Source: Lytechinus pictus (taxonomy: Eukaryota). From it: 64,000 bases of DNA. Every line of letters starts with the position of its first letter. The first letter of the stretch is position 1. Positions 27,609 to 62,586 of the stretch are shown here, piece by piece. Location of the stretch: positions 45,386,001-45,450,000 of the forward strand of contig NC_087251.1 of assembly GCF_037042905.1 (NCBI RefSeq), given 5' to 3'. Below the pieces are notes generated by a model that saw only the letters and a list, made by a program, of their open reading frames with translations, made no database searches and had not been told where the DNA came from. The position numbers were made by a program, and so were the translations under genes.

Positions 27609-27639
<31 letters not shown>

Positions 27640-38220: not shown

Positions 38221-38252
<32 letters not shown>

Positions 38253-38484
38253 CATGACATCATCATCATCATCATCACCACCATCATCATCATTCATCAC
38301 CATCATCATCATCATCATCATAATCTTCATCATCATCATCATCATCGTCATCGTCATCATCATCTTCATCATTCATCACCATCATCATCATCATCACAAC
38401 CACCATCACTGGCACCCCACCTCCATTATTAACATCATTATCATTAAATCACCAATATCATCATCATCACCATCATCATCATCA
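38098..38484. repeat. Compound (ATC/CAT)n microsatellite, left flank of the LTR element
   Basis: Degenerate ATC runs organised in a ~240-bp higher-order unit. Confidence 0.95.
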
Positions 38485-39901
38485 TGTTAGAGATTCAACC
38501 TTCCCCCTCAAGTGTATTCTTAATCCTTTGTATTATGTAATGCACAATAGTGCTCTGGAGTGAATAGTGAGTAGTTAGGCTCAGTGGTTAGGCTCCATCG
38601 CACTTAATTGTAATTAACATACTCAGCATTTTTGAACTGGGTGGGTTGCCTGTTTTAGCAGGAGTACCTCACTATCTGCACAGCTTTCACACAGGCAGGA
38701 CCTATTGGTCCTTGGGTCCAGTTGGGTGATTGGAAATGGAGAGTTAGAGTTTTAAGCCAAACACTTGCGCTGCAATAAAACTATATTCCAGAGTCAAGAT
38801 TCACTAAACCAACATGGAGGCCTGTTCCTGATTTCCTGCATTTAGTCATCCCAGTCAAACTGTAAGTTTAGTTGTTTTTTTGTCTCATTTATGTCTTGGA
38901 TTTTTATTATTCATTGAGAATAACAAAAGGTCAAAGAAAACCTCTAAAATGTGAGATGTGAAAGATGCTAACTATATTTTTTCATTAAAAGATTATTATA
39001 TGTCAACAAGAATTCCATCTGTTGAAATATTGAAAGGTCTTAAAATGATATTCTTAAAATATATAAGAAACTTTGCTTTTCCTAAGCATTAATGGATTAT
39101 GGAAAGTGTTTCTCATGTCATGGAATTTCTTTGTATGAAATGTTCGATTTAAGAGAAATGATGATGCTTTCTTTTCAATGACCGAATTATGTCATTCTAG
39201 ATTATACTTGAATACTTGAATTAAGCTAGGGAAATGATGTTTCCTTGAATATAGATAACCTATTATGTTATGGTTATTGTCCTATATGTATTCCGTAGAC
39301 TTTTTAAGTTTTGGAAATTGTTTAATTGTAGATGGGTTCTTCTTCATCTACATGGGAGTTCACCCAGTGGTTCTTCAGAAGTAAAGAAGTCTGGCAGCTC
39401 ATTTTCAGCCATTGACCAGACCAGTCAAGAGTAGGAGTAAAGGTTTATTAGAGGGCACCCACCAAGAACGGACAGCACCCTCGCTGACAAGATCTGATGA
39501 TGGTCGTTTATCATCGCTCGTTTTACTCATTCGTTACTCCTCATGAATTTTTAGCAGGAAGCAACAGTTGATTAAAGTGGGTTATTTTATTTATACCCTC
39601 CAGAGACTTAAAGCATTGTTTTGTAACCATATATATACTATTGTGTAACTTCCTTCGAGTTGAATATATTTTTGTTATTATTGTTTATCTTCTGTTTATT
39701 CTGGTCCACCTAAAACCAGAAGATTGAATTTAAATGTTGGAAGTTGAAGCCGGAAAACGAGTAATAAAACTAAACATATTTTATTTGTTGAACTAAATAA
39801 TAATTGTCTTCCATGGTCATTTATTTAGTTTTACAGTAGTGAGTTGAGAGAGTCACCATTCGACACAAGTTATGTCCATTTGAATTTATTCAGGTGTGAC
39901 A
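38485..39901 (+). repeat. 5' LTR
   Basis: TG...CA ends; direct repeat of 49406-50822 with the same length. Confidence 0.97.
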
Positions 39902-39905
39902 TTTT

Positions 39906-39944
39906 TGGGGGCTTGTCCGGGAGTCGAACCCGGGACCTCTCGCA
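39906..39944 (+). other. Extended primer-binding site complementary to the 3' half of tRNA-Pro
   Basis: TGGGGGCTTGTCCGGGAGTCGAACCCGGGACCTCTCGCA begins 4 nt after the 5' LTR. It matches the reverse complement of metazoan tRNA-Pro (recalled vertebrate sequence) at 36/39, including CCA. Confidence 0.9.
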
Positions 39945-40396
39945 GAATAAGGTTTCCTCTTATACTTCTTTATTACCAAAAGTGAAATAGATATTCTCAT
40001 TTTGTGAAGTACAAATTTGGAATTTTTCTACCTAAGAATATTCATAGATTGTTCTTGGACATTATTTTTGCTTTGTATAATGGGATATATTAGATATTAT
40101 CAAGTCAAAGCAGGATACTCCATAGAATGTAATTTCATGTGAATATTATTTACCGTTTTGATCGTTAATGCTACTTCTCTTTGAATGTTTTGTATTCTCT
40201 TCAATAATAGGAATAGTTGTGATTTGGTGATTAGAACGGAAATCGGATGCAAGTCTTCCAAGTCGGTTAAAGTGTTCTTGATTCTTTGGTAAGTAATCAT
40301 TTTGCGTAACTTTGCGCGCGTGTTTGGAAGAAGTTATTTTCTCAGATAGAATTTTAACCTTTTGATACAATAGTCCTGCCTGGTTAAGTTTTCATA

Positions 40397-43300
40397 ATGG
40401 ATTCTATTGATGAAAAATTGATTAACTTAGGTAAGGAGTTAGGATTAGTGGGTAAAGACTTGTTGGATTTCATTAAGGATAGAGAACAACAAGCAAGAGA
40501 AGAGAGAGCAACTGTAAGGGAAGATAGGAGACAGGAAATTGAGTTAAAGCAGTTAGAGGAAAATATATTAGATAAACAGTTGGCCTTAGTGCAGGCTAAT
40601 AAGGGTAATGAATCCCAGTTAGGAAATAACAGTATGCGAACCCATAGTTTGACAAAAGTCCCAAAGTTACCTCACTTTGACGAAAGTAGGGATAACATAG
40701 ATGCATACCTAGAGCGTTTTGAAAGGTACGCAAATAGTCAGAAATGGCAAAGTGATTGTTGGGCCATTAATTTAGGTGCACTTCTACAAGGGAAGGCTCT
40801 AGAAGTCTACAGTAGGTTGGCACCAGATGAAGCTGCTAAGTATTCAACTCTCAAGGACGCCCTCCTTCGTAGATACCAGATGTCTGCAGATGACTTCCGG
40901 AAGAAGTTCTACAGAGCAACTCCAGAGACAGGAGAGTCTGCTGGTCAGTTTATGGCGAGGTTAGAACATTACTTCGAGAGATGGGTAGATCTGACAGATA
41001 CAGCCAAATCATTTGAAGGGTTGAAAGATTTGATAATTAGACAGCAGTTCTTAGAGCAGATAAATCCAGGATTAGCTATTTACCTGAGAGAGCGTACTCC
41101 TCAGTCGACAAGGGAAATGACTGAAACTGCTCAGATTTATATTTCAGCACATGGTGGTCATTTCAAGGGTCCAAGAAAGGAAACCAAAGTAATGACACCT
41201 CATAAGTCTGAAACAAAGAGTGATGGTTTTCATAGGGAAAAGCCTAAGGGCCGAAAGCAAATTGGTCCTTGCTATCTGTGTGATCAAATGGGTCACCTTG
41301 CAAGAAATTGTAAGTCAAGTTCTAAATCAAAACTTGAGAAGGGTGGAAGTTTTGTAGATATTGGGTCCAAAACCAATAAACATAGGAAGTCTTCAGGTAA
41401 GACTAAATCTCATGATCCATGTCCTACGTGTTCTTCTTCTAAAGATTTAGGTGATGGCAGTGATATATCCCAGCTTGAGAGTGGGCTGTTTGTCATGATG
41501 TCTGCCTCAGGTATGGACCAGACAAGACCTACGAGGAAACAGAGGAAGAAACAGAAGAAGAAAATATCTGAGATGTGTGCGACTTGTAAAGGTAAGTTAC
41601 GCGAACTAATGCCTGTTACTGATGGTATTGTGAATTCTCAGACAGTTTCTGTTCTTAGAGACACAGGGTGTACTTGTGTTGTGATTCGGAAGAAACTAGT
41701 CAAGAAGGATCAGATGACTGGGAAATACAAGCTGTGTATTCTCATTGATGGTACGGTACGTTGGTATCCTACGGCTACGATACATATTGATTGTCCGTTT
41801 TTTGTAGGAACCGTTGTGGCGCTTTGTGTACGAGCACCACTGTTTGATGTTATTGTAGGAAATATCCAGAATGTTCTTCCTCCAGATGCGCCGAATCCAA
41901 ATTGGGGAATGCCGACATCAGGTAATGTTGTCACAGATAATGCTTTGTCTGAGGTGGGGATGGCTGTTGAGACGAGGTCACAGGTTAAAGCTGCTGAGAG
42001 AAAGCAAGCTCCTTTGAAGGTAATGTCTCCCATTCCAGAAGTTTCTCCACAGGATATACAGGAAGCACAGTTAGCAGATCCTACACTTAAGAAGGCAAGA
42101 GAACTTGCTGAGACCGAGGATGGTAGCAAAGAAGGTAAGAGAAATTATTTTTTCTTTCAGGATGGTTTGCTGCATAGAGTTTTCCAACCAAGTAGTGTTG
42201 TGAATGGAAACCAGGTTGTGCAACTTGTTGTGCCTAAGCCCTATCGGAAGGTTGTTATGAAACTGGCACATGAAGGTATTATGGGTGGACATCAGGGTGT
42301 CAAAAAGACTTCAGATAAGATAATGTTGAGTTTCTTTTGGCCAGGATTACAAGCAGATGTGAGTAGATTCTGCCAGTCGTGTGATATCTGTCAGAGAACT
42401 ATTAGCAAGGGAAGGGTCCCACGAGTTCCTCTTGGCAAGATGCCAATTATCGATGTTCCATTCAAGAGAATAGCTGTTGATTTGATAGGACCGATTCAAC
42501 CTATCACTTCCAGGAAGAATAGGTATATTCTTACAGTGGTTGATTGTGCTACTAGGTACCCAGAGGCGGTAGCCTTGCCCAACATAGAGACAACTACTGT
42601 TGCAGAGGCACTTGTTCAGATTTTCTCCAGAGTCGGTGTACCACAGGAGATTTTGTCAGATCGGGGCACTCAGTTCACCTCTGATCTTATGAAGGATATT
42701 GGGAAGTTGCTTTCAATAAAGCAAATGATGACGACCCCATATCACCCTGCCTGCAATGGGCTCGTTGAACGATTCAACGGCACGTTGAAGAAGATTTTAC
42801 GAAGAACTTGTTCAGACCGTCCCTCTGATTGGGATCGGTATCTCGCACCTATTTTGTTTGCTTACAGGGAGGCTCCTCAGGCTTCTATGGGTTTCTCACC
42901 TTTCGAACTCCTGTATGGACGCACTGTAAGAGGACCCTTAATGATTCTCAAGGAACTTTGGACGGGTAAGCAGCAGAATGAGGAGTTGAAATCAACCTAC
43001 CAGTATGTAGTCGAGCTGAAGGAACGACTGGAATCGACGTTAGAGGTTGCACAGCAAGAGCTGAGGAAGTCGATGGAAAGAAGTTCAAAGTACTACAACT
43101 CGAAGAGTAGGGAGAGAAGATTTCAGGTAGGAGATCAAGTTTTGTTGTTGTTACCTACTGAACACAACAAATTGTTAGTACAGTGGAAAGGTCCATTCAC
43201 TGTTGTGCACAAGCTCAGTGATCAGGATTATAGGTTAGACATTAATGGAAAACTTAAGACTTTCCATGCTAATTTGTTGAAACGTTATATCAGCAGAGAA

Positions 43301-44739
43301 GAAGACAGAGAAGAGTCTTTGACGGGTGATGAAGATCCAGCGGTTAGCGCTCAAGCTGTTGTCGTGACCGAGGATGATGACAGTGAAGCTAGTCCGATGT
43401 CAGGGAAGCTCAAGTCCATCGGTATTCATCTCCATCCACTTGAAGCAACTGAGACGACAGAAGATGTTTCAGTGTGCAAGAACTTATCTAAGGAGCAGAA
43501 GCGTGAGGTAAAGTCTTTGTTACTTGATTACAGGGAAGTCCTTACTGATCTTCCAGGAGAGTGTAAGTTGGGCACTCATTCAATCAAGCTGACTACAGAT
43601 GAGCCAGTACGTCAGAGACCATACCCAACTGCACATGCTCGCAAGAACACAATTGAGGAAGAAGTCAAGAAGATGCTCGAGATGGGAGTGATTGAGCAGT
43701 CTGAGTCTCCTTATTCATCGCCAATTGTGTTAGTTGGAAAAACTGATGGGACAAACCGTTTCTGCGTAGATTTTCGTCGATTGAATCGAGTGACAGTGTT
43801 CGACGCAGAACCCATTCCCAACAGTGATGAGATTTTCGCAAGTCTATCAGGATGTAAGTACTTCTCAAAAGTAGATCTATCTAAAGGGTACTGGCAGATT
43901 CCCTTATCCGAGGATGCTAAAGAGAAGACTGCATTCCGTAGTCCAAGTGGACTGTACCAGTTTTGCAGGATGCCTTTCGGTCTTGTTAATGCGCCGGCAA
44001 CTTTCAGTCGGGTAATGAGATCACTGCTCAAAGGTATGCCTTGCGTTCATAACTACTTGGATGACATACTCATCCATACTCGTACATGGGAGGAACATCT
44101 CCATGTTCTTGGAGAAGTCTTCAACAGACTTCGTTCAGCTGGTTTGACGGCACGGCCAAGTAAGTGTCAAATAGGATGTAACCAGATTGAATATCTAGGC
44201 CACATCGTGGGAGAGGACAAGCTTCTACCGATGCAAGACAAGGTGGAAAAGATTCGCAACGCTCCACCGCCAGAGACAAAGAAGCAGATGAGATCGTTCA
44301 TCGGGATGATAAACTACTACCGCAAGTTTATCCCTGATTTTGCATCAATTGCAGCTCCTCTGACAGACAAGACCAAAGGTCGTCAGCCCAACAAGCTTGT
44401 TTGGAGTGAATCAGACAAGAAGGCTTTTCAGCAGTTGAAAGACTGTTTGTCTACAGCTCCAGTTCTTTGCTTAGCTGATGTCGCTAAGCCCTTCATCATT
44501 CGCACTGATGCCTCGTCAACAGGTATCGGAGCAGTTCTCTTTCAAGAAAAAGAAGAAGGAAAACGCCCTGTTGCTTATGCCAGCAGAAAGTTACTTCCCA
44601 GGGAGCAAGCGTACTCTGCCATTGAACGCGAATGTCTCGCAATCGTTTGGGGAATTAGTAAATTTCAGGTATACCTAGATGGACGAGAGTTCATATTGGA
44701 GACAGATCACAAACCCCTCGTCTACCTTAACCAGTCTAA
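40397..44739 (+). CDS. Gag-Pol polyprotein, main part: SCAN-like capsid, CCHC knuckle, protease, integrase, RT and most of RNase H
   Basis: CYLCDQMGHLARNC knuckle; LRDTG protease; HHCC, DDE core and WKGPF integrase; FCVDFRRLN and YLDD RT; TDAS, ERECLA and TDHKPL RNase H. The ORF-track tail after 44739 reads into the inserted element. Confidence 0.95.
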
Positions 44740-45734
44740 TGGGGTGTTGCAAGAAAGTTACGTTGCAATTGATTGCAAATCGACTGCAACTTTGCAGCCG
44801 ATCCCGATCGACTGCAACTAGCAATCAATCGCCAATTTGCGTTGCAAGAAAAAGGCTTGCGATTGAACGCAAGTTGCAGCTGATTTGCAGACGATTTGCA
44901 GCTGTAAACAGGGTCTGCAGCACAAGACTAGCTGATGAAGCAAAATAATCCTTGCAATAATCGTGATTGTGGAAGAGAGTAAGTAGAAAATATTCATTTT
45001 TCACTGCTTTCTTTCTCCATTATGTATGTTTTCAGAGAATTTATATGTTTTAGACCTATGCCAGGGAAAAAATTATTTTGTAAAATGTGAAAATGTATCT
45101 TTATCGCCAGTCGAAATTTCACCTTCAAATTTTTTTTTACCACACAGTTTAAACCCAGTCCCACACTTGACTTTTTGTGTCGGTAATGCACTGTTGTACC
45201 AACAACACGGCAGGACATTCCCGGTGCAGTGCTGTTAAAAATCACCCTGAAGCAAGTAAATTTGTAGGCTCTAATTATGTATGAAACATCGAAAATGACC
45301 TTAAAAGATTATTATTGTTCATATTTGAAATGATTTTTAAGTTATATAAGTTTCAACGGCTAATAACCATCCAGTGAATCAGGCCAAAAAAAAACAACAA
45401 AGGTATAGGGGGTCTACATGTAGGCCTATATTATTAATTATTTTTAAAGATGTTATTGGGCTATTAAACCTATTGGCCACATCTGCCACATTCTTTGGGA
45501 AGTTTTAACATTGAACAGGGAGTTGCCCGCCCGGGGCTCTTTTTAAAATTTCTTACGGGTAGATTGCACAAGAGGTTCTTTGCAAGGACAGTCTATTTGT
45601 GTCGTTGATTTGTAATGATGTGCCGTATGAGTCACATTTTTAATATCCATCACATATAAATATAAAAAGATATAGGGCCTACATGTAAGCCTAAATAATT
45701 CTATTTTTTAGATTCAATATGTAGGTCTACTATG

Positions 45735-46155
45735 CCGGGGGGAAGGTACTTAGATTTGGTTTGGACAAAGGTGTGCGGCTGAAGGTTTGAAACCCGTACC
45801 CATATTTACAGGTCATTTCGGCTAAAAAGGTACCCATTATTAGGGATTCATTACAGGGGCGGATCCAGGATTTCCACAAGGGGGGGGGGGCACATTTTCG
45901 CCTGGAAAACTTGACAAGCAAAAAAAAAAGAAAAAAGTTATCGCCCAAAATGTAAGGTAATTTTGTATTTGCACCAAAGACAAGAGTAGAATATGGACCC
46001 ATGTTTAAGGCCAGTATCTAAAAATTGGGCCATGTTTAGGGATTTTCCAGCATAAAATCATACCCCATGTTTAGGGATTTCTTCCAAAAAGGCAACCCAT
46101 TCCAGCGGCACATCCCCATATGCATTATTTTGTGAGTCCCCCCCCCCCCCCCGGG
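45735..46155. mobile_element. CC(G)n...(C)nGG-ended MITE inside the Harbinger-like element, with a CAGGGGCGGATCCAGG-family fragment inside it
   Basis: Ends CCGGGGGGAAGGTACT and GAGTCCCC...CCGGG. The segment from 45854 matches the minus-strand element ending at 30160. Confidence 0.6.
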
Positions 46156-48172
46156 CTACTATTTAACTGACTCTAGTCTTAACTTGATTTTTATGCAAGC
46201 ACATGAGGTGCTATATAGATGACAGATTTTTTTTCACTTTAAATTGTTTAATGGATGATTACAATGCTTTTCCAGGTGCTTACAGTAAAAGGGTGTCTCA
46301 TATGGTGCATCATTATCATTTTATTAATATTGAATGCATAATCATGATTTTTTTTTTACATCCTTTTACATCAAGCACAATACTCGGGGGGGGGGGGGCA
46401 TATGGTCCCCCTTCACATTTTTCAGAATAAATCTGCAACTCAAAATTTTATTACCGCACCACTGACTGGCGTTTTACTTTCAAGTCTCGCGCAACTTTTG
46501 AGACCAAATTTGCAATTCCCAGGTACAGGGTCAGGAAATTTTGCAACATTGTGTTTGTTTAAGTACATGTCAGACAAAAACATGATTACATGTAAAAAGT
46601 TAATTGGGTAATTTTTTTTATTGACAATAGTAATTTAATGTCACTGATGAACTTTGTCTTGAAAATAACAACAACAAAAAATACATTTAAGAAGTTAAGA
46701 AAAAATATTAAAAAAAAAACATGAAAGGATTTTTTTTTATACCAGATTTTTTAAAGTAAAGTTGTTAGGAATGCTCTTGAAAGGAATATGTACACCAAAG
46801 TTTAGCATTCTATTACAAGCTTTTTTTAGTAAATTAAAGCAAAAGGTATGATTCATAATTTTCTTATTGCGCCGCCCATAGCTGAGGAACCATAGTACCC
46901 CTCCCCAGGACAGAAGTGACTTTAATCAAAACACCCTGGGACTACTATAATGATTAACACACTGGCAACTGAGCTTAACTTGTATATTAATTTCATGAAT
47001 ATGTTTTATCTCTTTGCTTTTTGCTTTTAATTGCTTACTACAGTTATGACAAGGAAGTCTGGAATAAACCGAACCACCATAACTGTGTCTGCTACCATGT
47101 GTGTTCTTGCAACCAGCTGATTGATTCATTTTATCAACTCTTGAATGGTAGGTTGCATGTAAACTGTATTATTATTAATAATTCACCATGATTGTAATGC
47201 GGATGGGGGTGAAATCTGTACACATTGACCAAAGGATAATGCAAAATGAAAAAAAGGCAAACACAAATCTCTATCTTGACTGGACTTCACAGCAATGAAG
47301 ACATCCCATTGATGGGGGGGGGGGGAGGGGGCGGTTGTTGTGCTCATCCAAGGTGTACTGTATGAAAGTGTGTATTTTGCTTTCATTGATTTAATTTATT
47401 GCATATTTTAATTTCCATGATTCATTTATTTGGGGAAAAACAATCAGTTCACACTTTTTTAGATTACATCATGGCAAATTGCCAATTACTATGGTCTCAG
47501 GAGTAAGCCACTTTCCCTCTATCTTATCATCATGTCGGTGCAAACAACGCCCTTACCAGCAGGCATAGGGGCATTTCTGCACCAATGGGGTGCACAAAAA
47601 TGTTTTGCTAAGGGCGTTTTTACACTGAAAGGACAAAATTTGAACTAACCCAAGCTACATGTATGTATAGTTATGGGCTTGCATTATTTCCTATATTATT
47701 ATTTTTTTATGGACAGGTTGATTATCAGAACTGAATTCAGAGCTGCTCCTGTCTGTAGTAAGATCATTTAGAGTGGACTTCAGAATGAGGGCGTTGCTTG
47801 TTTAAAATCTTCACTCCATGAAGCTCTCCAAATTCATCTCAAATTAGACTGCTTCTGGAAACCAGATTTGTTCCTTCAAGCAGAGACGCTTGTGGCTTTC
47901 CTGACTGGACTTCTATGGATTCTTCATGCCAACCTTAAGGACTGTGGTCTTCTGCATGATACGTCAATTTCAAACAAGACATTCTGTGGTGAAACACTTG
48001 ATGTAGATGATATGAAATTTTATTTCATATAACTGAATCTCAGAAGTAATTCCTCGGGAGCAAGAAACATTGAAAAATAAAAATAAAAGGTCCATCAATA
48101 TTGAATGTCTTGAGCAGTGTTCTTTTTTTTGTGCACAGATCAATGGATCTTTTCAAGTCCAAGCAGCCGAAG

Positions 48173-48303
48173 CAGGGATGTAGTCAATGCTGACCTCGAG
48201 GCAACATTTTGCTGGCCTTGGTCCGAGTCACTGTACAGAATCTATGGGAAGTTCTCTCAAGCTGCCTCATGACTCGGAAGAATCAGCCTCGACCTCATCC
48301 CTG
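48173..48303. mobile_element. Small hAT-like MITE inside the Harbinger-like element
   Basis: TIR CAGGGATG...CATCCCTG; no TSD recognised. Confidence 0.5.
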
Positions 48304-49169
48304 TATGCAAGTGTGATATATATCTACGATGCAATCTTATGATTAAAGAGAGCTTCAGATTTTGAAGTGTAGCAATCTCCTGAAATGTATGTTTTATTTG
48401 AAAATCAAACTAAAATAACTTAATTGGGCATGTTATTCATTATGATATGTATGAATGAAAGCATTTAAGCAATTTAGTGCTCTTGCAAAATAAATTCTGA
48501 GTTGTATTTACTGCAAACCCTCAGATATATTTATAAGCATTTGCCAGTGCATGAAGTGTTTTAATAAAGAGTGGCTTTTGTGCCTATGGAGAGTTATTAT
48601 TTCTTCAACATTTCTTCATACAAATTATTTCAGAAATCACAATTTGAATATTCCATGACCTCTGATAACAAGAGCAGAATATTTTTGGTGATTGACACAC
48701 TTTAAAATGATATTAGGAGAGAATGTACTGAAATTGTGTGAAAATAATGGCATAATTGCTGAAGAGGCCTATAAAGATTGAAAATAACATTATTTCAAGT
48801 TTTTCTTGAAAAAAACCCATGGAAAATTGAAAATGGCATAATTTACACAAGTTTTCAAAACAAAATACAAAAAAAAAAATTTTGCAGAATTTTTAGTACA
48901 CAAGCCTATGGACAATCAATTGAACGTAAATCGAACGCAAATTTTGCGCGTCCTCCAAAATCTCACATAAGTTACGTTCGATTTGCAATCAATCGCAAAG
49001 CTTGCGCTTGATCTACGTTCAATTGATCAAACGCAACTTCTTCTTGCAACAGGATTGAAAGTAACTTGCGTTCAATTGCAGATTTGCGTTTAATCGGAGG
49101 ACTTACGCTCAATTTTGGGAGTTGCGTTCGATTTGCGTTCAATCGCAAGTTTCTTGCAACACCCCATAA

Positions 49170-49287
49170 GTCGACTAATAGTAGAATCATGAGGTGGGCT
49201 TTATCTCTCCAACCTTACAGGTTCCATATTGAAGCTATACCAGGTTCGGAGAATGTTGGCGCGGATTTTCTAAGCAGGGCAGTTTGA
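49170..49287 (+). CDS. Displaced C-terminus of Pol (end of RNase H)
   Basis: STNSRIMRWALSLQPYRFHIEAIPGSENVGADFLSRAV*. It joins in frame to ...LVYLNQSK once the insert and one TAA are removed, giving 1486 aa. Confidence 0.93.
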
Positions 49288-49392
49288 GTTTAAATTAAGT
49301 TTAAGTAAAGCAAGAGAGCTTAGATTTATTTCTATGTCAATCCACTTTTGGGGATAGATTGAATATTTAATGTAAATATGAAATATTTTCTT

Positions 49393-49402
49393 AAGGAGGG
49401 GG
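49393..49402 (+). other. Polypurine tract
   Basis: AAGGAGGGGG ends 3 nt before the 3' LTR. Confidence 0.85.
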
Positions 49403-49405
49403 TGA

Positions 49406-50822
49406 TGTTAGAGATTCAACCTTCCCCCTCAAGTGTATTCTTAATCCTTTGTATTATGTAATGCACAATAGTGCTCTGGAGTGAATAGTGAGTAGTTAGG
49501 CTCAGTGGTTAGGCTCCATCGCACTTAATTGTAATTAACATACTCAGCATTTTTGAACTGGGTGGGTTGCCTGTTTTAGCAGGAGTACCTCACTATCTGC
49601 ACAGCTTTCACACAGGCAGGACCTATTGGTCCTTGGGTCCAGTTGGGTGATTGGAAATGGAGAGTTAGAGTTTTAAGCCAAACACTTGCGCTGCAATAAA
49701 ACTATATTCCAGAGTCAAGATTCACTAAACCAACATGGAGGCCTGTTCCTGATTTCCTGCATTTAGTCATCCCAGTCAAACTGTAAGTTTAGTTGTTTTT
49801 TTGTCTCATTTATGTCTTGGATTTTTATTATTCATTGAGAATAACAAAAGGTCAAAGAAAACCTCTAAAATGTGAGATGTGAAAGATGCTAACTATATTT
49901 TTTCATTAAAAGATTATTATATGTCAACAAGAATTCCATCTGTTGAAATATTGAAAGGTCTTAAAATGATATTCTTAAAATATATAAGAAACTTTGCTTT
50001 TCCTAAGCATTAATGGATTATGGAAAGTGTTTCTCATGTCATGGAATTTCTTTGTATGAAATGTTCGATTTAAGAGAAATGATGATGCTTTCTTTTCAAT
50101 GACCGAATTATGTCATTCTAGATTATACTTGAATACTTGAATTAAGCTAGGGAAATGATGTTTCCTTGAATATAGATAACCTATTATGTTATGGTTATTG
50201 TCCTATATGTATTCCGTAGACTTTTTAAGTTTTGGAAATTGTTTAATTGTAGATGGGTTCTTCTTCATCTACATGGGAGTTCACCCAGTGGTTCTTCAGA
50301 AGTAAAGAAGTCTGGCAGCTCATTTTCAGCCATTGACCAGACCAGTCAAGAGTAGGAGTAAAGGTTTATTAGAGGGCACCCACCAAGAACGGACAGCACC
50401 CTCGCTGACAAGATCTGATGATGGTCGTTTATCATCGCTCGTTTTACTCATTCGTTACTCCTCATGAATTTTTAGCAGGAAGCAACAGTTGATTAAAGTG
50501 GGTTATTTTATTTATACCCTCCAGAGACTTAAAGCATTGTTTTGTAACCATATATATACTATTGTGTAACTTCCTTCGAGTTGAATATATTTTTGTTATT
50601 ATTGTTTATCTTCTGTTTATTCTGGTCCACCTAAAACCAGAAGATTGAATTTAAATGTTGGAAGTTGAAGCCGGAAAACGAGTAATAAAACTAAACATAT
50701 TTTATTTGTTGAACTAAATAATAATTGTCTTCCATGGTCATTTATTTAGTTTTACAGTAGTGAGTTGAGAGAGTCACCATTCGACACAAGTTATGTCCAT
50801 TTGAATTTATTCAGGTGTGACA
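49406..50822 (+). repeat. 3' LTR
   Basis: Direct repeat of 38485-39901. Confidence 0.97.
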
Positions 50823-50974
50823 ATCATCATCATCATCATAATCTTCATCATCATCATCATCATCGTCATCGTCATCATCATCTTCATCATTCATCACCAT
50901 CATCATCATCATCACAACCACCATCACTGGCACCCCACCTCCATTATTAACATCATTATCATTAAATCACCAAT

Positions 50975-51006
<32 letters not shown>

Positions 51007-51190
51007 CATGACATCATCATCATCATCATCATCACCACCATCATCATCATTCATCACCATCATCATCATCAAAATCTTCATCATCATCATCATCATCGTC
51101 CTTCGTCGTCATCATCATCATCATTCATCATCATCACAACCACCATCACTGGCACCCCACCTCCATTATTAACATCATTATCATCAAATC
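50823..51190. repeat. Compound (ATC/CAT)n microsatellite, right flank of the LTR element
   Basis: Same unit; contains GGCACCCCACCTCCATTATTAAC twice. Confidence 0.95.
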
Positions 51191-52000
51191 AAAATGAATC
51201 AAATACTGCAATATGACAAATCATAATCATATGGTCATGTGAACACTTCCTTTCTTGCGTGAAGAGAAAGGGACCTTTAATTTAATGTGAAGGCTGTGAA
51301 GGTGAGGATTGGGCCGAGAGCACATTAATTTGATATCCATATGTACCCCTGTCAACTGTTTTGATTAACGCTAATACAACCGGAACACAAACATTCTCAA
51401 GTGTGTCAAGTCATGTATACTGGCTTTGAGCATGAGACTGTAACTACTCAAAGAAAATAGAATGGACAATTATTTGGAAAGAAAGCTAATACCAATTTAT
51501 GACAGTTTACACTATAATCTCACGAATTTGTATGAAACCACTTGGCAAATTTGTGGTGGCTTGGTTTAATTTTTTTTAAATACTGTGTATCAAGTGTATC
51601 TTTATATTTTTGTTTATTTAATTTCCAGGAACATATAACAATTAATAATGACAAGACAACAAATAAAAAAAAAAAAAACTTGACAATATATGAAACAAGC
51701 ATCAACCAATGAGCCGGGATCATCTGAAAGAAATTACATGTATTTGTTTAGGTTAATCAACATCCAGAAAAGTGATCAATAAAGCTGTCCTTAACAATTT
51801 GTCACACATAAAAACTTGACAAATGACTAGGACTGCATGTACATGTATGGCAAGGCAAAATGGGTATCTGAACTTTCTTTTAATAGCCAAAGTTGATACA
51901 TGCAGGATTTAACATTTGTTTCAGAAAGATCTTACCAGGTTGCATAAAAATTTAAAGTTCTTTGATTTTGTTTTTACTATGTGTTAAAGGTAAGACATAC

Positions 52001-52160
52001 CTGTTTCGGGATCCTCGTAAAGTGCTGCTACCTTGGCAACAAACGGCAGGTCTCGTTTCCTCAGGTCTGCTCTCAGTAAGACACAATCTCTGGTCTTGAT
52101 GACATCATCTTTCCTTCTGATGGACTCGTAGCAGAAACGCACCTCTTGGACACTCTCATT
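52001..52160 (-). CDS. BAHD1: BAHD1 BAH-domain exon, absent from the ORF track
   Basis: Acceptor ctcttcctttgtcag|AAT, donor ACAG|gtatgt. 160 nt, phase 0 in and 1 out. Encodes NESVQEVRFCYESIRRKDDVIKTRDCVLLRADLRKRDLPFVAKVAALYEDPET, like BAHD1 [33 protein letters not shown]. Confidence 0.95.
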
Positions 52161-52296
52161 CTGACAAAGGAAGAGAACGGAACAATCTTAAACAGTACTT
52201 ACATAATCAACTACTGAAGTAGTCCTGTTTCACATACATGTAGCAAGACATTTTGTAGTGGAAACTCATTCAATTTCAAAGTATTTGAAGTAATTT

Positions 52297-52765
52297 CCCC
52301 CAGGGGGGGCCAGTCAAACATATTGCTGTACACATGCGTGACCAAGAAATTTCCAAACACCCCCTAAACGAGTTTTTCTCAGGGTGCAAAATAAATAATT
52401 TAATAAAATAAACAACTTTTTCGCGGGCTTTATTCACACATTTTGGCCCCTAAACAAGATGTCGCCAAAATATGACCTCGGGGGAAAAAGCTTGGGAAAA
52501 AAAATACCCTAGACACGTTTGGCTAGTCTTAAAAAAAAAGCTTTGGGGGAAAAAACACACCCTAAATACATGTACGTTTGACCCCGCGATTGACCATTGA
52601 CCAGTCTTTCAAAACCACCCTTTTTCTTGAAAATCAGTGTTTTTGATACCCGTAACGAGTCCACGCGCGGACCGCGTACAACACTGAAAAAACACCCCTT
52701 TTAACGCGTTTTTTGGTCACGCGTGTGTACAGCAATATATTTGACTGCCCCCCCCCCCCCCGGGG
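52297..52765. mobile_element. CCC...GGG-ended MITE with ~45-bp TIR
   Basis: CAGTCAAACATATTGCTGTACACATGCGTGACC inverted at both ends; TAATTT on both flanks. Confidence 0.8.
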
Positions 52766-52805
52766 TAATTTCTTTTTTAGTTTTTACCAATTTATGTTTA
52801 CTATA

Positions 52806-52862
52806 TTAAAAGTGTCTGTGGATGGATTCACAGCAGTAACGCACCTCTTGGACACTCTCATT
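52806..52862 (-). pseudogene. Partial duplicate of the BAHD1 BAH exon 5' end, AG acceptor retained
   Basis: cag|AATGAGAGTGTCCAAGAGGTGCGTT; 38/42 nt identical to the real exon start; reads NESVQEVRYCCESIHRHF*. Confidence 0.8.
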
Positions 52863-55130
52863 CTGATCGGCAGACAAAGTTCTAGAGAACAACACAGAAA
52901 TAATCAACTAACCAAGAACTGAAGAACTGTTTCATAACACATGCATTTTGTTATGAAAGCTAATTCAAACAGAGTGATTATTATTCCAAATAATTTCTTT
53001 TATACCTATGATGTTGCAAAGCTGGTGTCTGTGGACAATAAGAATTCTCCCGATCATAGAAATATGGGTACATTTAGGTTTTACACAACTAATATAGGCA
53101 TACAAAATAAAGCCAATTGCATATCACTCTCATTTATCATTAACACAAGGTTTTGATGTAACAAGTTATCTTCAATACAATTTATTATGAGAATGCTAAA
53201 TTTTACATGTACAACAAAATCTCTGGGTTCATAAAAGGAAAAAAAAAATATTGAGGAAGTTGTTCATCATTCAAGTCTTATTTAATTTTACTTGTTATGA
53301 TATTCTGTTTTCTTTATCCAACTACATGTACAATGTCCTTGTTAACCCATAAGACTTTATCAAATATATGGATAAATGTTATGTACATGCATGTATGTAC
53401 ATGTACACATGTAGTATGAGTCAGAACTGTTTTATATTTAAAAAACACCTTAGAGACTTTAATTATCAGTTGCCAATTTGCATCTTCAAAAATTGCAGAG
53501 ATGTCTCCTAAAGCTCCAAAAGGAGATTTTATAAATGTAGTCATGTCCACTTCATAGTGGTATACAATATAGAAGTTTTGGCTGACATCGAAAATTTGAA
53601 AAAAAAAGTGCTCTCAGATTTCAAGTAAAATAGTGTATTTCAAATACCCCACTGAAAAAAAATGATGTTAATTTATTTGCTAAGCCATAATTCACAATAA
53701 ACGTATATACTCTAAAGGTTTAATAGCATCTGTCTACAATGTATGCCAGCTGAAATCCAATTGCACAGGGTACTGGTGCTCAATCACATGTATTTTCAAT
53801 TTAACAAGAAAGCTGTAAATACAATATGGCTTTTAAACTTGACCTATGATCTCTATATATGAAAGCAGTCTTGATGATCAGACACTTTGTTGCATTGCAA
53901 ACTCTTTTCCTTCTATGATTTTCTGCGGTTGAATGGAACACATAAATCTATATCAATGCCTGTTAAATCTTTATGATTACAAAATAACTAAGCATGTACA
54001 GTACATGGACATTACACAATCTAATCTATCGTTGAAATGATCCTCATCATTAGCTCTGTTCTATCAATTAAAACCACGTTATCACATCCAAAGATTACAA
54101 AATGTATCATAATGTATACAAATATTGACTGCACATGAGAATGACTGTGTAAATTTATCATTCCCAAGGTGCATTCATACCAGCCCTTCTATCACCCCCC
54201 CCCCCCCCCGAGTCCTTGGCCCAGGGTTGAAAGAAGGGGGCCCAGTATGAAAAGCACCGAGGGAATGATGATTTTTACTGTCATCTGAATAAAGAGCAGT
54301 CCATGTTTGTTTTATACATGTATATACCTCATTGTTAATCACATCAGCCTAGACCTACGGGTTTCAATTTTAGGACCACTCTCTAATTTGATTTGTTATG
54401 TCCCTTTCATACTGGCCTCTTCCTTTTTCCCCAGCAAACTTCTCCGGCAAGCATTCCTCACTTTCCCCAGCAAAGAGAAAACTGTGCCCTTTTGCATCAA
54501 CATCTCTTCCCTGGCGAAAGTCGATGGGCGATTTGCCCGGGCGGAGGTGCAGACCGGGGTAAAATGAAGGCCAGCGCTTTTTTAATTTTCCGATATATCG
54601 CAATACAGAAATCAACGTTTAATACTCATTAGCCTGAGCTGAACAAGCTCAGCACGTGCACAATGAACAAAAAGAAAATTGTCAACATTGCTTCTTATCA
54701 AGTACTAAAGGTATTAAAAAGTTTAAATTACAATATCTTTTAGAAAGATTAAAAGAAAAAAAAATCAGAGTATTTCAATATTTTCAGTGCATCTTTAGCA
54801 TGTAAAAGATGCTTTTATCATAAATATCATTAGTAAAAAAGAAACGGTATGTTCGAGGGTATTTAACTCTATGGATTGATCGGTCCTCCGCTTTATTCAG
54901 CATGCAGAATCTCGGTTCAGAGTATTTTCGGGATATGAAATTTGACCTCTGACGTCATTAAAGCAGAGAAGTTCTCACGGTGAGCTTTCATATTGGCCTT
55001 TTCACTTGCAAACTTCGCCGGGGACGTTCTCCTGTGTACCTTTCATACACTGGACACTTTCCCCTTTGCTGGTGAAGTTCACCGGCGAAAAGCAGTCTTA
55101 TGTAAGTGGAATAATCACTTTGTAATTTAA

Positions 55131-55310
55131 ACTGGGCGTTGTTGTGGCGTGCGCCTGTAATCCAAACTGTGGGGAAGTTCCAAATTGACGCAAAGGTTCG
55201 AGCCCTGGTCACATCTTTCGGCTGGTGACTATAAAGGTCGGTCCCAGACGTAAATAATCATATCTGATTGATACACATCTGACAAAACTCAAATACACAC
55301 ACACACACAC
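55131..55310 (+). mobile_element. Putative 7SL-derived SINE: Alu-domain head, Deu/Nin-like body, (CA)n tail
   Basis: ACTGGGCGTTGTTGTGGCGTGCGCCTGTAATCC resembles the 7SL/Alu 5' end. B-box GGTTCGAGCC at 55195; (CA)n tail. No TSD seen. Confidence 0.65.
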
Positions 55311-57022
55311 GAGCTGCACTGCTATGGCCAGCCAGGGCACCATTGGCTGCGCACACATGACCCGAGCAGTAGCATGAAAAGCGCAGCAGCAGTCAGTTAA
55401 TGTTCAATAGCTCTAGCCAGGTAGATGCGCGCTTTATAGCAACATAACTTGCGGTCCCGCTCTCAGGTGATATAAGTACTATCAGAGGGTTCGATAGAAG
55501 AAATTGACAGTAAGTAAAAGCCCTAAGATGATGATAGACGGCATAGCACCTCGTCACATGATGCAGTTTTGACCAATCAGTGATAACTATCTTAGTATGA
55601 GGTATATAATAAATTATGTTCCACTGCTAAAATGAACTAAAACGTACATGTACATGTACCTGAAAGCTAACAATGGCAATGTCAGAATAAAGAAATAAAA
55701 ACTTGTTCCATCTCCTCTTTAAAAAGCAGATCTATACAAATATTGTACCAAAGAAAGAGTATTTCAACAAAAGATTAAAACTATTGTCACTCAGAATTGA
55801 GTGTCATTTCTAAACTACTCATGTACATGTACATTGTATTGATTGCCCTTTTCATTTTCATGACGACCGCTGTACCGAAATGACACATTGATTAAACACA
55901 TCAGAAGCGACGAAAGCCTGCCAATAGAGACTAAGTATCATTATTCTGATCGGAGTGTTTAGAGTATTTACACTCAACTTATCACTTGGCATATTACGGA
56001 TGACAGCCTGACTGGGCTGGGTGCCACATGAAATTTGTAGGGTTGCATTTCATACATATTGCAAAGGATTCACAAGCTAATACATGAAAGAGTGATTGTC
56101 TCCCAGACTCTCCGGGTATGATGCGCCATACAGAAGCGAAGTGGTATACATACCGTATTTGAAACTTAACCCAGAAGAAAGAGATCGGTTGCAAACAAGG
56201 AGACGCTTTTGTTCAAGTACAAATAATCTACCCCAAATTATCCACAGTGATTCTTCATCCACATGATCCAAAAGCAATATTGTAATGTTATCGTAATACA
56301 TGTACCAAAACTACCAGTATAAATGCAAATTGATGAATTACAGCAAAACTAAAAATCTAATTATTATGATGAAGAAGTAGATCATAAATGACACATATAT
56401 CAATAGCTTAAATATCACCCCAACATTTATGATTCTGTCTATTTGGTAAAATATTATAATCACAAACATAAAAAATAAATGCATATCCATGAAAATTGAA
56501 TTTCCATTAAATGTGATCACATTTTTGAAATTCAGTAATTTTGAGCCAAATGTAGTATTGTCACACAAGAGGATTGAGTGGATGGGGGATACACTACACT
56601 ACAGGCGACCAGCAACTCCACCCCTAAACTTGTCTTTGCTTGGTCAAAATAATACTTAAAGACCAACTTAATAACCATCATCAATGTAGCCCTGAAAATT
56701 CTGTACAAATATGAAAGGGGGAAAATACCCTGAACACGATCCTTTTCTGATTGGTTATTTATGATACCCTAACACACCATGCACGTACACTGTATGATAT
56801 TAAGCCAATTACAATAGAGCAAAAACATGTACTTCTCATCACGTTTGTGAATGTGTAGGCCCCTACCTAGTGATATATTTCTGCCCCCCCCCCCCCCCTA
56901 GACTTAAATATGATCCACATGTGAATAAACAAAATATACCCTTTTCTTTTTTAGGACACAATATAACACATCTGAGTATCTATTTCGGACTAAATTTAAA
57001 GATAAAGGAAAAATTTGCTTAC

Positions 57023-57243
57023 ATTAATGATAACAGGTTTCTGCACTGGATTGCCTTCCCCTCGCCATCCATTGGTAGATTTCCTTCGATGAAAGGGTTT
57101 GAGACCGGGCCTTTTCACCACCTTCCGAACGACTTTCGACTTGGAGTTGATGAACTCCGTGACGGTAGTTCCACCGTCGTTAGGCTGGGGGACTGTAACT
57201 ATTGTACCATTGTTTGGCGTACCGTTTGATGCATGCAAATTTC
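57023..57243 (-). CDS. BAHD1: BAHD1 coding exon, basic stretch plus TNGW motif before the BAH domain
   Basis: Acceptor tctctcttctcacag|GA, donor AAT|gtaagc. 221 nt, phase 1 in and 0 out. HRRKSTNGWRGEGNPVQKPVIIN resembles vertebrate BAHD1 [22 protein letters not shown] (from memory). Confidence 0.9.
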
Positions 57244-57808
57244 CTGTGAGAAGAGAGAATCAATTATTGTCAATATCACATTCTCATGCTCATATGTATG
57301 TAGTAAATCTGCTCAGTTTAAATTAACTGAATGAATAAATCTAATGATAATAAAAAAATAACATTGTAAACCAACAATTGTGTGATCAAATTTCGCATCA
57401 TTCATCAATAAGTAGGCCTATACATTTAGAAACATACATATACAGTATAAGCAAATTGATTATTGAATTACATGTACACAGTAGCTTGGCATAGATTTGA
57501 ACGACATAGATGAAACACAAATTCATTAGCTTCTAAAATATTGTACAACTTTGTGTGAAGTACATACTGCCGCACTTGATGTCATATTCCAGTTGTTGTA
57601 AGCCTACATGTAGTTTCCCTGTTGGTGCTATTATTTTCGGTAAATTTTTGAAGCCCTTGTCAACTGTACTGTAAATGGCGAAAATGAGGCTGCTTTAATC
57701 ATTTAATTGGGCTTGGATGAAGTGCAAAGTTTCCACTTGGGTTCTGGAAATTCCAAAATCTTTCTACTTTAAACATTAATAGGCAAGATGGGGGAACCCG
57801 TAACAGAG

Positions 57809-58785
57809 AACAAGTGGAGCGCCTCTGGCAGTCTCACCTGCATCATGCGATTCAATATAGCAGCAGTGCTGACTTTGAAAACTACTATAATTATTCACAA
57901 AAAACACAATTCATATAATGATACAATATGTTCATTGACAATAAATGACATTTGACCTTGATCATGCGACCTAAGACTTGTCAGTGATACTTGATTACCC
58001 ATATATCCACATCTGATTATCTATAAACTTGAAAGTTATGACAGCAATCTAATAATTACCTCCAAAATGGCCAAAGTTCATTGACCTTAGATGACCTTTG
58101 ACTTTGGTCATGTGACCTGAAACTCATGTGAGATGTTCAGTGATACCTGATTACTCTTATGTCCAAATTCTATGAACTAGAGCGATGCACTTTCGGAGTT
58201 ATGATGTTTATTCAACAATTCCCCCCAACATGGCCAAATTCATTTACCTTTGTCATGTGACCTAAAACTTGCACAGGATGTTCAGTGATACTTGACTACT
58301 CTTATGTCCAAGTTTTATGAACTACATGTAGACCAATACACTTACAAAGTTATGATGGTAATTCAACAAATACCCCCAACATGGCCAAAGTTCATTGACC
58401 TTAAATGACCTTTGACCTTGGTCATGTGACCTGAAACTTGCACAGGACGTTCAGTGATACTTGATTACCGGTACTTTTATTTCCAAGTTTTATGAAATCA
58501 GATCCACAAACTTTTAAATTTATGATGGTAATTCAACAAATACCCCCAACTTGGTCAAAGTTCATTTACCCTAAATGACCTTCGACCATGGTCATGTGAC
58601 TTGAAACTCAGGCAGGATGTTCAGTAATACTTGATTAACCTTATGTCCAAGTTTCATGAACTAGGTCCATATACTTTCTAAGTTATGCTGTCATTTCAAA
58701 AACTTAATTTTCTGTTAAGATTTGATGTTGATGCCGTCGGAAAACTGGCGCCTATAGTCTCACTCCGCTATACAGGTGAGACAAA
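57809..58785 (-). mobile_element. HINE-like element, older copy
   Basis: Same termini and tandem units, more diverged. Confidence 0.8.
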
Positions 58786-59848
58786 ACTTTGAAATACGGG
58801 AATTTAAAATGTAGCACAACTTGTCAACTAACCACTACCCTCAAAAGACAGACTATAATATATAATTAATTAATTATACAAAGAGAAAAACACAGAGCAA
58901 ATACATATAGATGCTGAGAATTCACAATGGGGAGAAGGAGAAAAAAAGTGCATGAACTGTACATGTAGGCCTATTGGAAGGAGGAAAAGTGGATATTAGA
59001 CAGAGGTGATACAAAATAGATCGTGGAAGGATGCCATGGCAAAAAATAGACGAGTTCAGAATAAATCAGAAAGGGAGCATTTTATAAAGAGTTTGGTCAG
59101 AAATTCCACTGACTAATTTGTTCTCAGCCAATCAGATGCAAGGATTTCAGTAACAATTGTCAGTGTAAATCACCTACTGTTTGTTTCATGAAACCCTTAC
59201 CCGAAAAGGGGAAATCCACAGGAGAGCCAAGGGAAATTAGAGAAAAACAAGAAGAGAAGACCGTCAGTCAGGAAATTGAATACAGGTTGCGAAAGCTTCA
59301 CCAATTGTCTGTTTCATTATTTGCACCCATAAAGTGGAAGATTTGACACTGATGGCCAATATCAGTTTCTTACGAGGAAAAATATATCATTACACTGTTC
59401 CAACATATTACACTGTACATGTGCCTTGACATTTACTTTTTCTCAGTATGCTGTATTCTACGGTGTGTCGAGTGTCTGATGTTTCCATGTAACATGTATG
59501 AATATTTGGATCTGGATTAAACCCCATTGGAAACGAGCCATCTCGGCTTTCAATAGCTTTCCCGTCACAGTATTTTGATACTTTTTATCTCATGAATACT
59601 TGCATCTGTTATGACATAATGTATCTGGGGAATAAAATGAATCAACAAATCAATTGATTGTGAATAATCATTTTTATTAAATCTACTACCATAGTGTGTT
59701 TAAAACTCAAACTTCAAAGTTTTCATAATCATATATAAGATAACCTATTTATAATTTCAAACATTTATCACCCTCCTCATCATACTTGTAAATTTTCTTG
59801 CATTGAAATCTACAGTACAATAATCTTGTTTCACAATCTACATAAATG

Positions 59849-60105
59849 TAATAATATAGGATTTGTATAGCTCAAGGTGCTCAAGGCGCTCCTATATTAC
59901 CCCGGCTAAGCTAGTCTACCGATTCTGGTGCACACAGCTTTTTGAGGAATTTCTTCCTGCCAATACCCATTTACCTCACCTGGGTCGAGTGCAGCACAGT
60001 GTGGATAAATTTCTTGCTGAAGGAAAACACGCCATGGCTAGGATTCGAACCCACAACCCTCTGTTTGAAAGGCGACAGTCAGAACCACTAGACCACGACG
60101 CGCCC
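59849..60105 (-). mobile_element. tRNA-derived SINE, family A
   Basis: Head, core and short (TAT)n tail as in the other copies. Confidence 0.82.
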
Positions 60106-60749
60106 ACATGTACGCGAATTCAAGGAATATATAGTGCTTGAAAATGCATGTTTTTCAAATAAATTTTATTCATAAAATCAATAAATTTTTTGCATTTGCA
60201 AACATCTTTAGAAATATGTAAAGTCTACAACTTTCCTTTGATCAATATAAAACAGTATGTACGTGTCAGTCATTGCTGCTTTTTTACTTTCTTCATTTAT
60301 TATGCTTACTGTTCTCTGTTAATATGTTGTGGTATCACTGTCTATTCTCACGGGATCAATATACATAATCAGAGCTAAAACACACATCAAAGACATCCCT
60401 CCAGGCACAGTCCCCCTTCACTTTGTATTTGCTTGTGAGATTGAATTCACCTACAGACAAGAAAGCGGCTTTGTGCTGATTTAACACTCGGGGAAACACA
60501 TTGACCCTGGCATTTGTCTGTGCTGTGCAACTCAACTGTACATGTTTACACGTCGTCGAATGGAGAGAAGCAAAGCGTGTTGTGAACATACATGTACAGG
60601 GGATGAGACCCCAGGGATCTTAGATGGTATCAAATGAATGACTGATTTCTATATATGAAGTTGGCTATGTTACAATGATGGTTTCATGTCTTTCTGTCTC
60701 CCGTTTTGCACATCGAGTGAATGGCTTTTAATAGGAATTTCCATGTTAA

Positions 60750-61351
60750 AGGGATGGTCCGGGCCGAAAATATTTATAACTAAATAAATATAACAAAATT
60801 CACAGAGCAAAATGCTGAAAATTTCATCAAAATCGGATGACAAATAACAAAGTTATTGAATTTTAATGTTTATCAATATTTTGTGAAAACAGTTACATGT
60901 ATATATGCACATCGTCATGAATATTCATTAGGTGGGCTGATGATGTCACATCTCCACTTTCCTTTTTCTTATGTTATTACATGAAATCATGTTTCATTTT
61001 TTCATACCTGTGTAAATGATGTGTCTGCATCATAATGAAATAAGTTGCGGCAATAAATAATGCACTCAATCAATTGTCAATCCAATTGTTTTAGTTTTTG
61101 GTAGAAATTTTTTGAATAAACCTAATTTCATATAATAAAATACAAAAGAACAAGTGGGGATATGACATCATCAGCCCACATAATAAATATTCATAAAGAC
61201 ATGCCTTGAACTGTTTCACCAGTATAATACAAATCTTTAAAATTCAATAACTTTGTTATTTGTTATCCGATTTTGATCAAATTTTCAGCATTTTGCTCTG
61301 TGAATTTTACTCTTTATTGAGATATAAATATTTTCAGCCTGGACCATCCCT
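60750..61351. mobile_element. Kolobok-like MITE, related subfamily
   Basis: TTAA|AGGGATGGTCC...GGACCATCCCT; shares the internal GAAAATTTCATCAAAATCGGAT motif. Confidence 0.85.
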
Positions 61352-62586
61352 TTTATTGAAATGTACATGAAAATATACATGTAAGGAAACTTAGTTTGAT
61401 AATCTTGTTAATAGCCTAGAAAAATGCACATAGGGCCTACATGTAAGGTAACTAAAAAGTTTAATAATCTCTATGGTAGCGATTTGAATTTCAAATGAAG
61501 GTTAATGAAGAGAAATAGTGAAAAATCTATGTACAGTATAAAGTATAGGCAATAATTACAGACTTGGAATATTAGTTTTGAGTTAATAACTGGAGCTCTG
61601 TCAATTCACTCTACATTGTTGCAGGTATTTGAATGAGACATGTCAATTTTAAACTCAGGAATACTCTGAAAGTAGTCAGCTGTATGAATTTTCATTATTT
61701 TTAGTTTTTACTGCAGAATGAAACAAAATATCAGACTTAGATGTATGCCACACTCTCTGCATGCATTTGCATACAAGAGAACTACGAGGAAGAGACAAAG
61801 GGAAAGAGTGAGAGTAGAAGAGAGACAGAGCGAGTGTGGAAGGGAGAGGGGGGGGGGACACCTTGCAGTAGCATGGGAGTAGTCACTCTTCTGAAGGTGT
61901 ACAATTTGTCACAATCGCCGTAGCCGCATGGTGTGGCTACACTGGACGCATGCCATACAGACGAGCTGCAAGTCAGATTGAAGCTACCCCTACCGTCTGG
62001 CTTATAAATAGCTTACACAGGTGTCTGATGCCGTGATCTCTCTAATGAGCTCTACGAGGGCCATAATATACACACCCCAGCATGGACATAGCCAAGAGGT
62101 ACATGTAAACATGTCGAGCAGGCCTAGCCTGCTGATTTACAAGCAATGATACAACTTGGTACACGATGCAAAGGACATGTAATAAACAACTATGAAGAGG
62201 AAATATATTTGATTTCATACTGGAGTGATTTAAATTGAAACTATTAAAAAGAAACATGTGGAATAGACATTTGGTGAGAATTGTTCCTTGTTGGATCTAA
62301 TGTATGGTGCACCCGAGGTTATATACCAATTTCCTAATAAATATTATGTCATGATATAAAAGGGGTTCAATTAATCCAAGACCATGACTTTGGGTGCCCT
62401 ATTGGCCCAAATGTCCCTCTCATTGGCCTTAAGATATTTTGTTTTCCCTTTTTACTTTTTTTTTTTGCCAATTGTGCTTTATTATTTATATAACAGTAGC
62501 CTTTCACTACAAAATATCAAACTTAATGGCCTGCATGAGTACCATAGATTTATATACATGTATGTGAATCAGAACTTTGAGCTTAC

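Follow-up and report, generated by a model that had tools for sequence, protein, structure and literature searches.

Palindromic six-base gains at TA sites in animal-like DNA as probable excision scars of Tc1/mariner-type transposons

Excision of the transposon Tc1 from the germ line of Caenorhabditis elegans can leave TACATGTA, a TA-CA-TG-TA product with a net gain of 6 bp that arises by way of 2-base 3′ overhangs (PMC4490562). It accounts for 24 of the 103 germline Tc1 revertants reported, 10 of 36 in lig-4 mutants and 3 of 39 in polq-1 mutants, and the pathway in the worm germ line depends on polymerase theta (PMC4490562). The assay, which selects in-frame products, found 26 footprint classes, and uniform footprints are therefore not the rule in worms. 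The canonical footprints of Sleeping Beauty, TACAGTA and TACTGTA, are 7 bp in length and likewise combine a TA duplication with terminal bases kept by end joining (PMC6943129). In rice, fixed excision marks of DNA transposons have been read by genome comparison; the excisions are heterogeneous, perfect in 8 of 94 cases and fewer than the insertions (PMC4423477). Himar1 and Tc1 share a target bias for A at −3 and T at +3 of the TA (PMC8525568; PMC9635669), and Sailor (DD82E), also of the IS630/Tc1/mariner (ITm) group, has inverted repeats that start with CC, is recorded from one echinoderm and duplicates mostly TATA (PMC8533490).

We analysed a 64-kb stretch of AT-rich, animal-like DNA (the whole of which is called the window) that holds several MITE families, three copies of a tandem-unit repeat, a Gypsy-type retrotransposon and, at its right end, an exon-like frame. 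The worm product recurs in the window with the A−3/T+3 bias of Tc1 (PMC9635669). In worms it is one of 26 classes, comes from a known element and is rare in natural isolates (PMC4490562), whereas in the window it is a standing mark for which no parent was found there, and GG and CC cores and compound forms are added to it. Sleeping Beauty leaves heptamers (PMC6943129), whereas the main product in the window is a palindromic 8-mer; the GGC/GCC heptamers of the window would represent the same geometry for GGC ends. Rice excisions are ragged (PMC4423477), whereas the marks in the window are uniform and outnumber visible parents by 61 to 0 in 64 kb. The footprint chemistry is already known; the unusual features are how dense and uniform the marks are and their multi-core and compound pattern. 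Within the accessible portions of the literature searched, to which subscription papers did not belong, we found no earlier description of such dense, serial and compound scars. Judging from sequence comparison, we give a probability of about three in four to the reading that cut-and-paste transposons of the ITm kind, which target TA, left these gains as scars on excision.

Two gains in one copy of a tandem-unit repeat

The gains that can be polarised against repeat copies or related contigs lie in the following features.

57809..58786, + strand: host repeat, non-coding, with a subterminal inverted repeat and tandem units of about 165 bp; HINE-like, a label taken from the first-pass annotation
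58323..58330, unstranded: TACATGTA, a gain of 6 bp (CATG and a second TA) at a repeat-unit TA, with A at −3
58466..58473, unstranded: TACCGGTA, a gain of 6 bp (CCGG and a second TA), with T at +3; the sole CCGG site of the window
52567..52574, unstranded: TACATGTA in a MITE (52298-52764) with an 8-bp target duplication; 6 bp longer than in some related contigs
60894..60903, unstranded: TACATGTATA in a TTAA-type MITE (60748-61353); 8 bp longer than in five copies of another subfamily

The inverted repeat of the host copy is visible near both of its ends. The copy is 88–89% identical to its siblings at 9171-10132 and 26881-27690, which are 95% identical to one another; the doubly scarred copy is thus the most diverged of the three. 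We aligned 13 units from the three copies. At 58323, a single unit carries the additional CATGTA and reads gaacTAcatgTAgacc where 10 of the 12 others read gaacTAg; the remaining two read CA there, likewise without a gain. At 58466, one unit carries the additional CCGGTA and reads gatTAccggTAct, and the site is unexpanded in all 12 others. Neither core is copied from adjacent bases. Aligning the window with itself gave cleanly flanked 6-bp indels at three distinct places, these TA-palindrome-TA gains being two of them (a fourth row, a second alignment of 58466, was not counted); no GGCC gain was found inside any repeat of the window.

For comparison we used contigs from four public runs (X1, X2, X6 and X10) of a related organism A, which differs from the window by around 3% in the exon and around 6% in introns. 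The runs contain at most 0.19 of the words of the window, and the comparison is swamped by repeat contigs, so that the indel figures represent 12 of 319 rows and the loose-end figures 24 rows. The six letters at 58323 are left out in at least 10, 13, 7 and 4 contigs of the four runs, and loose ends (at 58329) match the unexpanded sibling in at least 116 (X1), 148 (X2) and 14 (X10) contigs. At 58466 (58468), unexpanded loose ends occur in at least 113 (X2) and 81 (X6) contigs. Because the 12 other units and many of the public-run contigs are unexpanded, the consensus of the repeat family is without the octamers. The first-pass annotation had reported a 6-bp gain at TA at both positions, which the unit alignment bears out, and the objection it raised against itself, a family consensus that already holds the octamers, therefore falls away. 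X6 contigs span the junctions at either end of the host copy, which is thus common to the window genome and organism A; among the matches listed, no read of the orthologous copy showed either gain.

The first-pass annotation had also placed CATGTA gains at 52567 and 60894, and these two claims fared differently. At 52567, the six letters are left out in at least 3 (X1) and 6 (X2) contigs, which establishes a 6-bp gain relative to some related contigs; among the matches listed, X6 and X10 gave no such contig, and no sibling copy was found within the window. The gain at 60894 is 8 bp (CATGTA plus TA) rather than 6 bp, and this site is therefore not a clean case. At 58323, 58466 and 52567, a TA that was already present has accordingly been duplicated in the gain, and 60894 has an extra TA.

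At least four octamers of the window (53204, 62100, 62555 and 63202) cannot lack 6 bp in organism A and are common to both genomes, as judged by span arithmetic over 26 listed pieces; by the same arithmetic, scar-free pieces are up to 31 letters short as well, so that such shortfalls are not evidence for empty alleles. The octamer at 63202 sits in an exon, possibly by chance. It is in frame in an exon-like low-complexity frame on the minus strand (62588-64000); the region 62510-64000 has no Pfam or Atlas match.

A field of probable CATG scars with a target-site bias

Across the window, TACATGTA occurs 54 times against 3.3 expected and TAGGCCTA 7 times against 0.28–0.35, both far above chance; TACCGGTA, with 1 occurrence against 0.22, is not above chance. 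The sites form one field.

2022..62562, unstranded: scar field of 54 clusters with 61 CATG, GGCC or CCGG octamers in non-coding DNA

The octamer at 63202, inside the exon-like frame, is additional to these. The density of TACATGTA is approximately one per 1.2 kb of window, and the CATG core is constant at 54 different, unrelated flanks. Words one mismatch away from TACATGTA show only a slight excess (63 versus 43 expected), so most sites are young. Recognised repeats carry scars at 4 of 1,074 TA sites, compared with 57 of 3,367 in the remaining non-coding DNA; the Gypsy frame has none at 241 TA sites and its LTRs have none either. That repeats and the Gypsy frame are poor in scars and that the doubly scarred copy is the most diverged of its family fits an accumulation of scars with the age of the DNA. 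We dropped TACGCGTA (3 versus 0.16) as a scar class because all three occurrences are one site of one repeat family. They lie in three copies of a MITE family with AGG..CCT ends and an apparent ANT duplication (3149-3630, 18942-19446, 24578-25064 and 31362-31852), and may represent an old scar fixed in a master copy.

Sequences of other animals were obtained from at least 121 metagenome loci, chosen by a 20-mer compound scar, the hosts of which are animal-like. For counting, 20 redundant alleles and one tandem array were removed and the searched cluster was collapsed, leaving 100 loci.

If elements once sat at these TA sites, their target bias should persist in the flanks. T at +3 (or A at −3) was found in 59 of 108 flanks versus 33% (p = 3e-6) at the 54 clusters, nearly all of which bear CATG, and 18 of the 54 show the bias on both sides, against 0.10. 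It is retained when flanks that might themselves be decayed scars are left out (42 of 88 versus 0.30), when the first two bases are used as strata (z = 5.1) and relative to the local background; control TA-N4-TA words are flat, with T at +3 in 284 of 866 (0.33). A at +1 is depleted at scarred TAs, and T at +1, which belongs to the Tc1 consensus, shows no enrichment (40 of 108 flanks). At CATG sites of the metagenome loci, T stands at +3 in 74 of 152 flanks versus 0.30, and in 41% for single sites only.

The scars are best explained by four steps. A transposase would insert an element at a TA, preferring the A−3/T+3 context observed here, and would duplicate the TA. Later excision would leave two or three terminal bases as 3′ overhangs on each flank, a chemistry that is well known, and end joining that keeps two bases per end would give TA-CA-TG-TA, the net +6 product found in the window. 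Were this a germline event, the near-neutral, frame-keeping scar could drift while the element is gone, and older DNA would come to hold more scars. Where the population is large, an active element would probably have quit a site before reaching fixation there, leaving the scar behind.

The excision origin proposed in the first-pass annotation is supported for the CATG class, for which gains at pre-existing TA sites, the target bias and a known Tc1 product agree; its statement that TACATGTA is a described Tc1 footprint is correct (row L of Supplementary Data 3, PMC4490562). Its term ‘direct evidence’ was too strong: the repeats prove the polarity of insertion, not excision, and because neither parent ends nor full-element alleles were found, membership of the ITm group is not proven.

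GG and CC cores and probable compound scars

The GG cores form a series. In the window, GGC/GCC heptamers occur 12 times against 3.4 expected (3 of the 12 are one site of a repeat family) and GGGCC twice against 0.11, beside the seven GGCC octamers. The 100 metagenome loci hold 82 GGC/GCC against 24, 114 GGCC against 3.3 and 24 GGGCC against 1.1. The GG heptamers of the window have no A−3/T+3 bias (4 of 24); single GGCC sites of the metagenome loci show little (both sides in 13 of 108), and across the GG series of these loci T at +3 reaches 82 of 224 (p = 0.04). Both GG and CC classes prefer C at +1, with frequencies of 0.36, 0.42 and 0.46 for GGC/GCC, GGCC and GGGCC in the metagenome loci versus 0.22.

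The series points to a candidate transposon family with GGC ends. A second family with GGC..GCC ends and a 3-base overhang could yield all three forms as three joins of the same ends, a reading to which we give even odds: full overlap with a mismatch would produce GGC/GCC, two-base annealing GGCC and one-base overlap GGGCC. Some of the shorter and longer forms could also stem from slippage within the G/C run. In the available text of three ITm reports (PMC8533490, PMC7386202 and PMC11544213), we found no GG-ended TA family, and that of the latter two provided no useful end motifs; in the literature searched, we found no record of an experimentally observed footprint for GGCC or CCGG.

CCGG has one site in the window and 7 occurrences versus 1.9 expected in the metagenome loci, a modest support, with none of 8 showing A−3/T+3 on both sides. 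It might derive from a rare CC-ended family, for which we set the odds somewhat short of even. Sailor shares the ITm group and the CC start with such a putative family (PMC8533490); however, its TATA duplication is absent at 58466, and the available text reports no GG start for it. The proposal of the first-pass annotation that three families each left their own scar is thus supported for CATG; the GG class is real but appears to be serial, unlike a simple 2+2 product, and the CC class amounts to one site in the window.

Scars of different cores are also fused.

58960..58973, unstranded: compound scar TACATGTAGGCCTA
37304..37323, unstranded: triple compound scar, CATG-GGCC-CATG
8488..8501, unstranded: compound scar GGCC-CATG, with the same form at 28922-28935
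45415-45428, unstranded: compound scar CATG-GGCC
45673..45693, unstranded: GGGCC variant fused to a CATG scar, followed by TAAGCCTA
61431..61445, unstranded: GGGCC variant fused to a CATG scar
55645..55658, unstranded: double CATG scar, the one perfect CATG-CATG double

A CATG scar is present at 6 of the 14 TA ends of TAGGCCTA (p = 6e-9) and at both GGGCC sites. Nested events number 7 extra, compared with 0.84 in simulation (0 of 5,000 runs). Fusion of GG and CATG scars is not predicted under independent events, and hot sites alone would predict more CATG-CATG doubles; one of the two families may preferentially insert at scars left by the other. The same words and compounds recur in unrelated assemblies among the metagenome contigs.

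Parent elements, alternative readings and implications

The 64-kb window yielded no element that is flanked by TA and has true CA, CC or GG ends. None of 14 allele pairs from contigs of other animals sets a full element against a scar, and none of the organism A contigs, among the matches listed, has a full element at a scar site. The host repeat motif had no match in viral and metagenome contigs. A comparison with Rfam gave no match.

We rejected as parents the TWA-, ANT-, 8-bp- and TTAA-flanked MITEs of the window, its AT-flanked GG-ended element, and a TA-flanked GGC-ended hairpin in one metagenome locus (L051, 2767-2814), the palindrome of which runs past the TA. One MITE family with TWA duplications and TACCCC ends has copies at 8524-8929, 18050-18451 and 19810-20200, and an inverted-repeat element at 10869-11825 holds a nested TTAA-type MITE (11039-11614). 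The AT-flanked element is 4.4 kb in length (44741-49165), has terminal inverted repeats that begin with GG and a 2-bp duplication of AT, and interrupts the pol frame of the Gypsy-type retrotransposon. Within the element lie genomic DNA of ordinary appearance, other repeats and 5 scars, on account of which it looks like a very recent pack-type element. The LTRs of the retrotransposon (38484-39901 and 49405-50822) are 1,418 bp in length and 100% identical; its polyprotein (40388-44821) has integrase ahead of reverse transcriptase and a weak SCAN-domain match in gag.

TA-flanked inverted-repeat elements with CAG ends occur in four metagenome loci (L006, L046, L062 and L037). Two bases separate a triple scar in L046 (2190-2393) from the end of a TA-flanked, CAG-ended MITE 180 bp in length; the alleles aligned with it, L037 and L076, have no large gap at this site.

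Among the alternatives, repair without a transposon is unlikely but survives best: TA breaks would be healed with short palindromic filler by host end joining or snap-back, and no element would ever have been present. This would account for perfect palindromes, for compound and nested forms, for the clustering of scars within 200–500 bp of each other and for the lack of a parent in the window, and there is a slight local excess of the core 4-mer, which recurs within 20 nt of 18 of 58 sites versus a background of 0.20. However, at 58323 and 58466 the core is not copied from the bases beside it, a single fixed core stands at 54 different flanks, and the Tc1/Himar1 target bias is present at the scars. 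We know of no host pathway that makes such filler.

Two further classes of transposon footprint were rejected. A hAT-type hairpin (P-nucleotide) footprint is a palindrome copied from the flanks within an 8-bp target duplication, whereas the core here is independent of the flanks and the duplication is 2 bp. PIF/Harbinger footprints are GG-ended with a 3-bp TWA (TAA/TTA) duplication; AAGGCCTA and its complement are absent from the window, and each of the seven GGCC sites is bounded by TA on either side, beyond which the bases vary.

A different TA-duplicating superfamily outside ITm is slightly less probable still. Animal EnSpm/CACTA-like elements duplicate TA and have CAC ends, and any CA end would give the same 2+2 core; TA-flanked CAC-ended inverted-repeat elements are indeed present in two metagenome loci (L063 and L026). 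Against this, TA-CAC/GTG-TA is not in excess in the window (8 versus 7.8), whereas TA-CAG/CTG-TA heptamers are about twofold enriched (22 versus 9.3), although these show no target bias (15 of 42). The A−3/T+3 bias, moreover, is documented for ITm elements in the available text of PMC8525568 and PMC9635669.

That the octamers are selected binding sites, or an ancestral state lost by the siblings, is very improbable and is largely refuted for the four sites cited in the first-pass annotation: at least four octamers are common to organism A, but the 12 sibling units and the family contigs lack them, they sit within transposon-like repeats, and decayed forms are few. An assembly or sequencing artefact, which the failure to see the two gains in independent reads of the orthologous copy among the matches listed might suggest, is the least probable reading, given the four octamers common to independent runs, the same words and compounds in unrelated assemblies, and the scar-free Gypsy frame (0 of 241 TA sites) and LTRs.

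If the scars are products of ITm-type excision, the window may preserve a dense fossil record of hit-and-run transposition in this lineage and in other marine animals, a broader view that we advance tentatively and at clearly less than even odds. TA-targeting families would have scarred the genome about once per kb while almost never being retained; the ends and cut geometry of the GGC-ended family would be readable from its scar series, and one family would insert with strong preference at scars of the other. On this view, palindromic gains of six bases would rank as a major class of indel that keeps the frame and can be dated. Excision rate is the hardest term in population models of DNA transposons, as excisions are usually reversed or ragged; uniform scars, polarised within repeat families, would make excision countable, datable and mappable and would also report on germline end joining. 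They would explain, in addition, a strong word bias that motif finders could take for regulatory sites.

Related metagenome sequences differ by 11 distinct 6-bp indels, of which 3 are clear TA-palindrome-TA gains (GGCC, CATG and AGCT) and one is ambiguous; 5- and 7-bp TA-bounded gains are also present. Other cores (AGCT, GGTCC, CCCGG and GCC) are seen in TA-bounded gains between alleles or orthologues at L064 477, L087 424, L065 950 and L028 1338, and TACTAGTA is raised in the metagenome loci (16 versus 2.9). Sixteen viral loci with the 14-mer have almost no further scars. The tandem array set aside from the counts (L035, 950-1141) consists of 12-bp units in which CATG alternates with AGCC, AGCT or GGCC cores, and scars may thus seed minisatellites.
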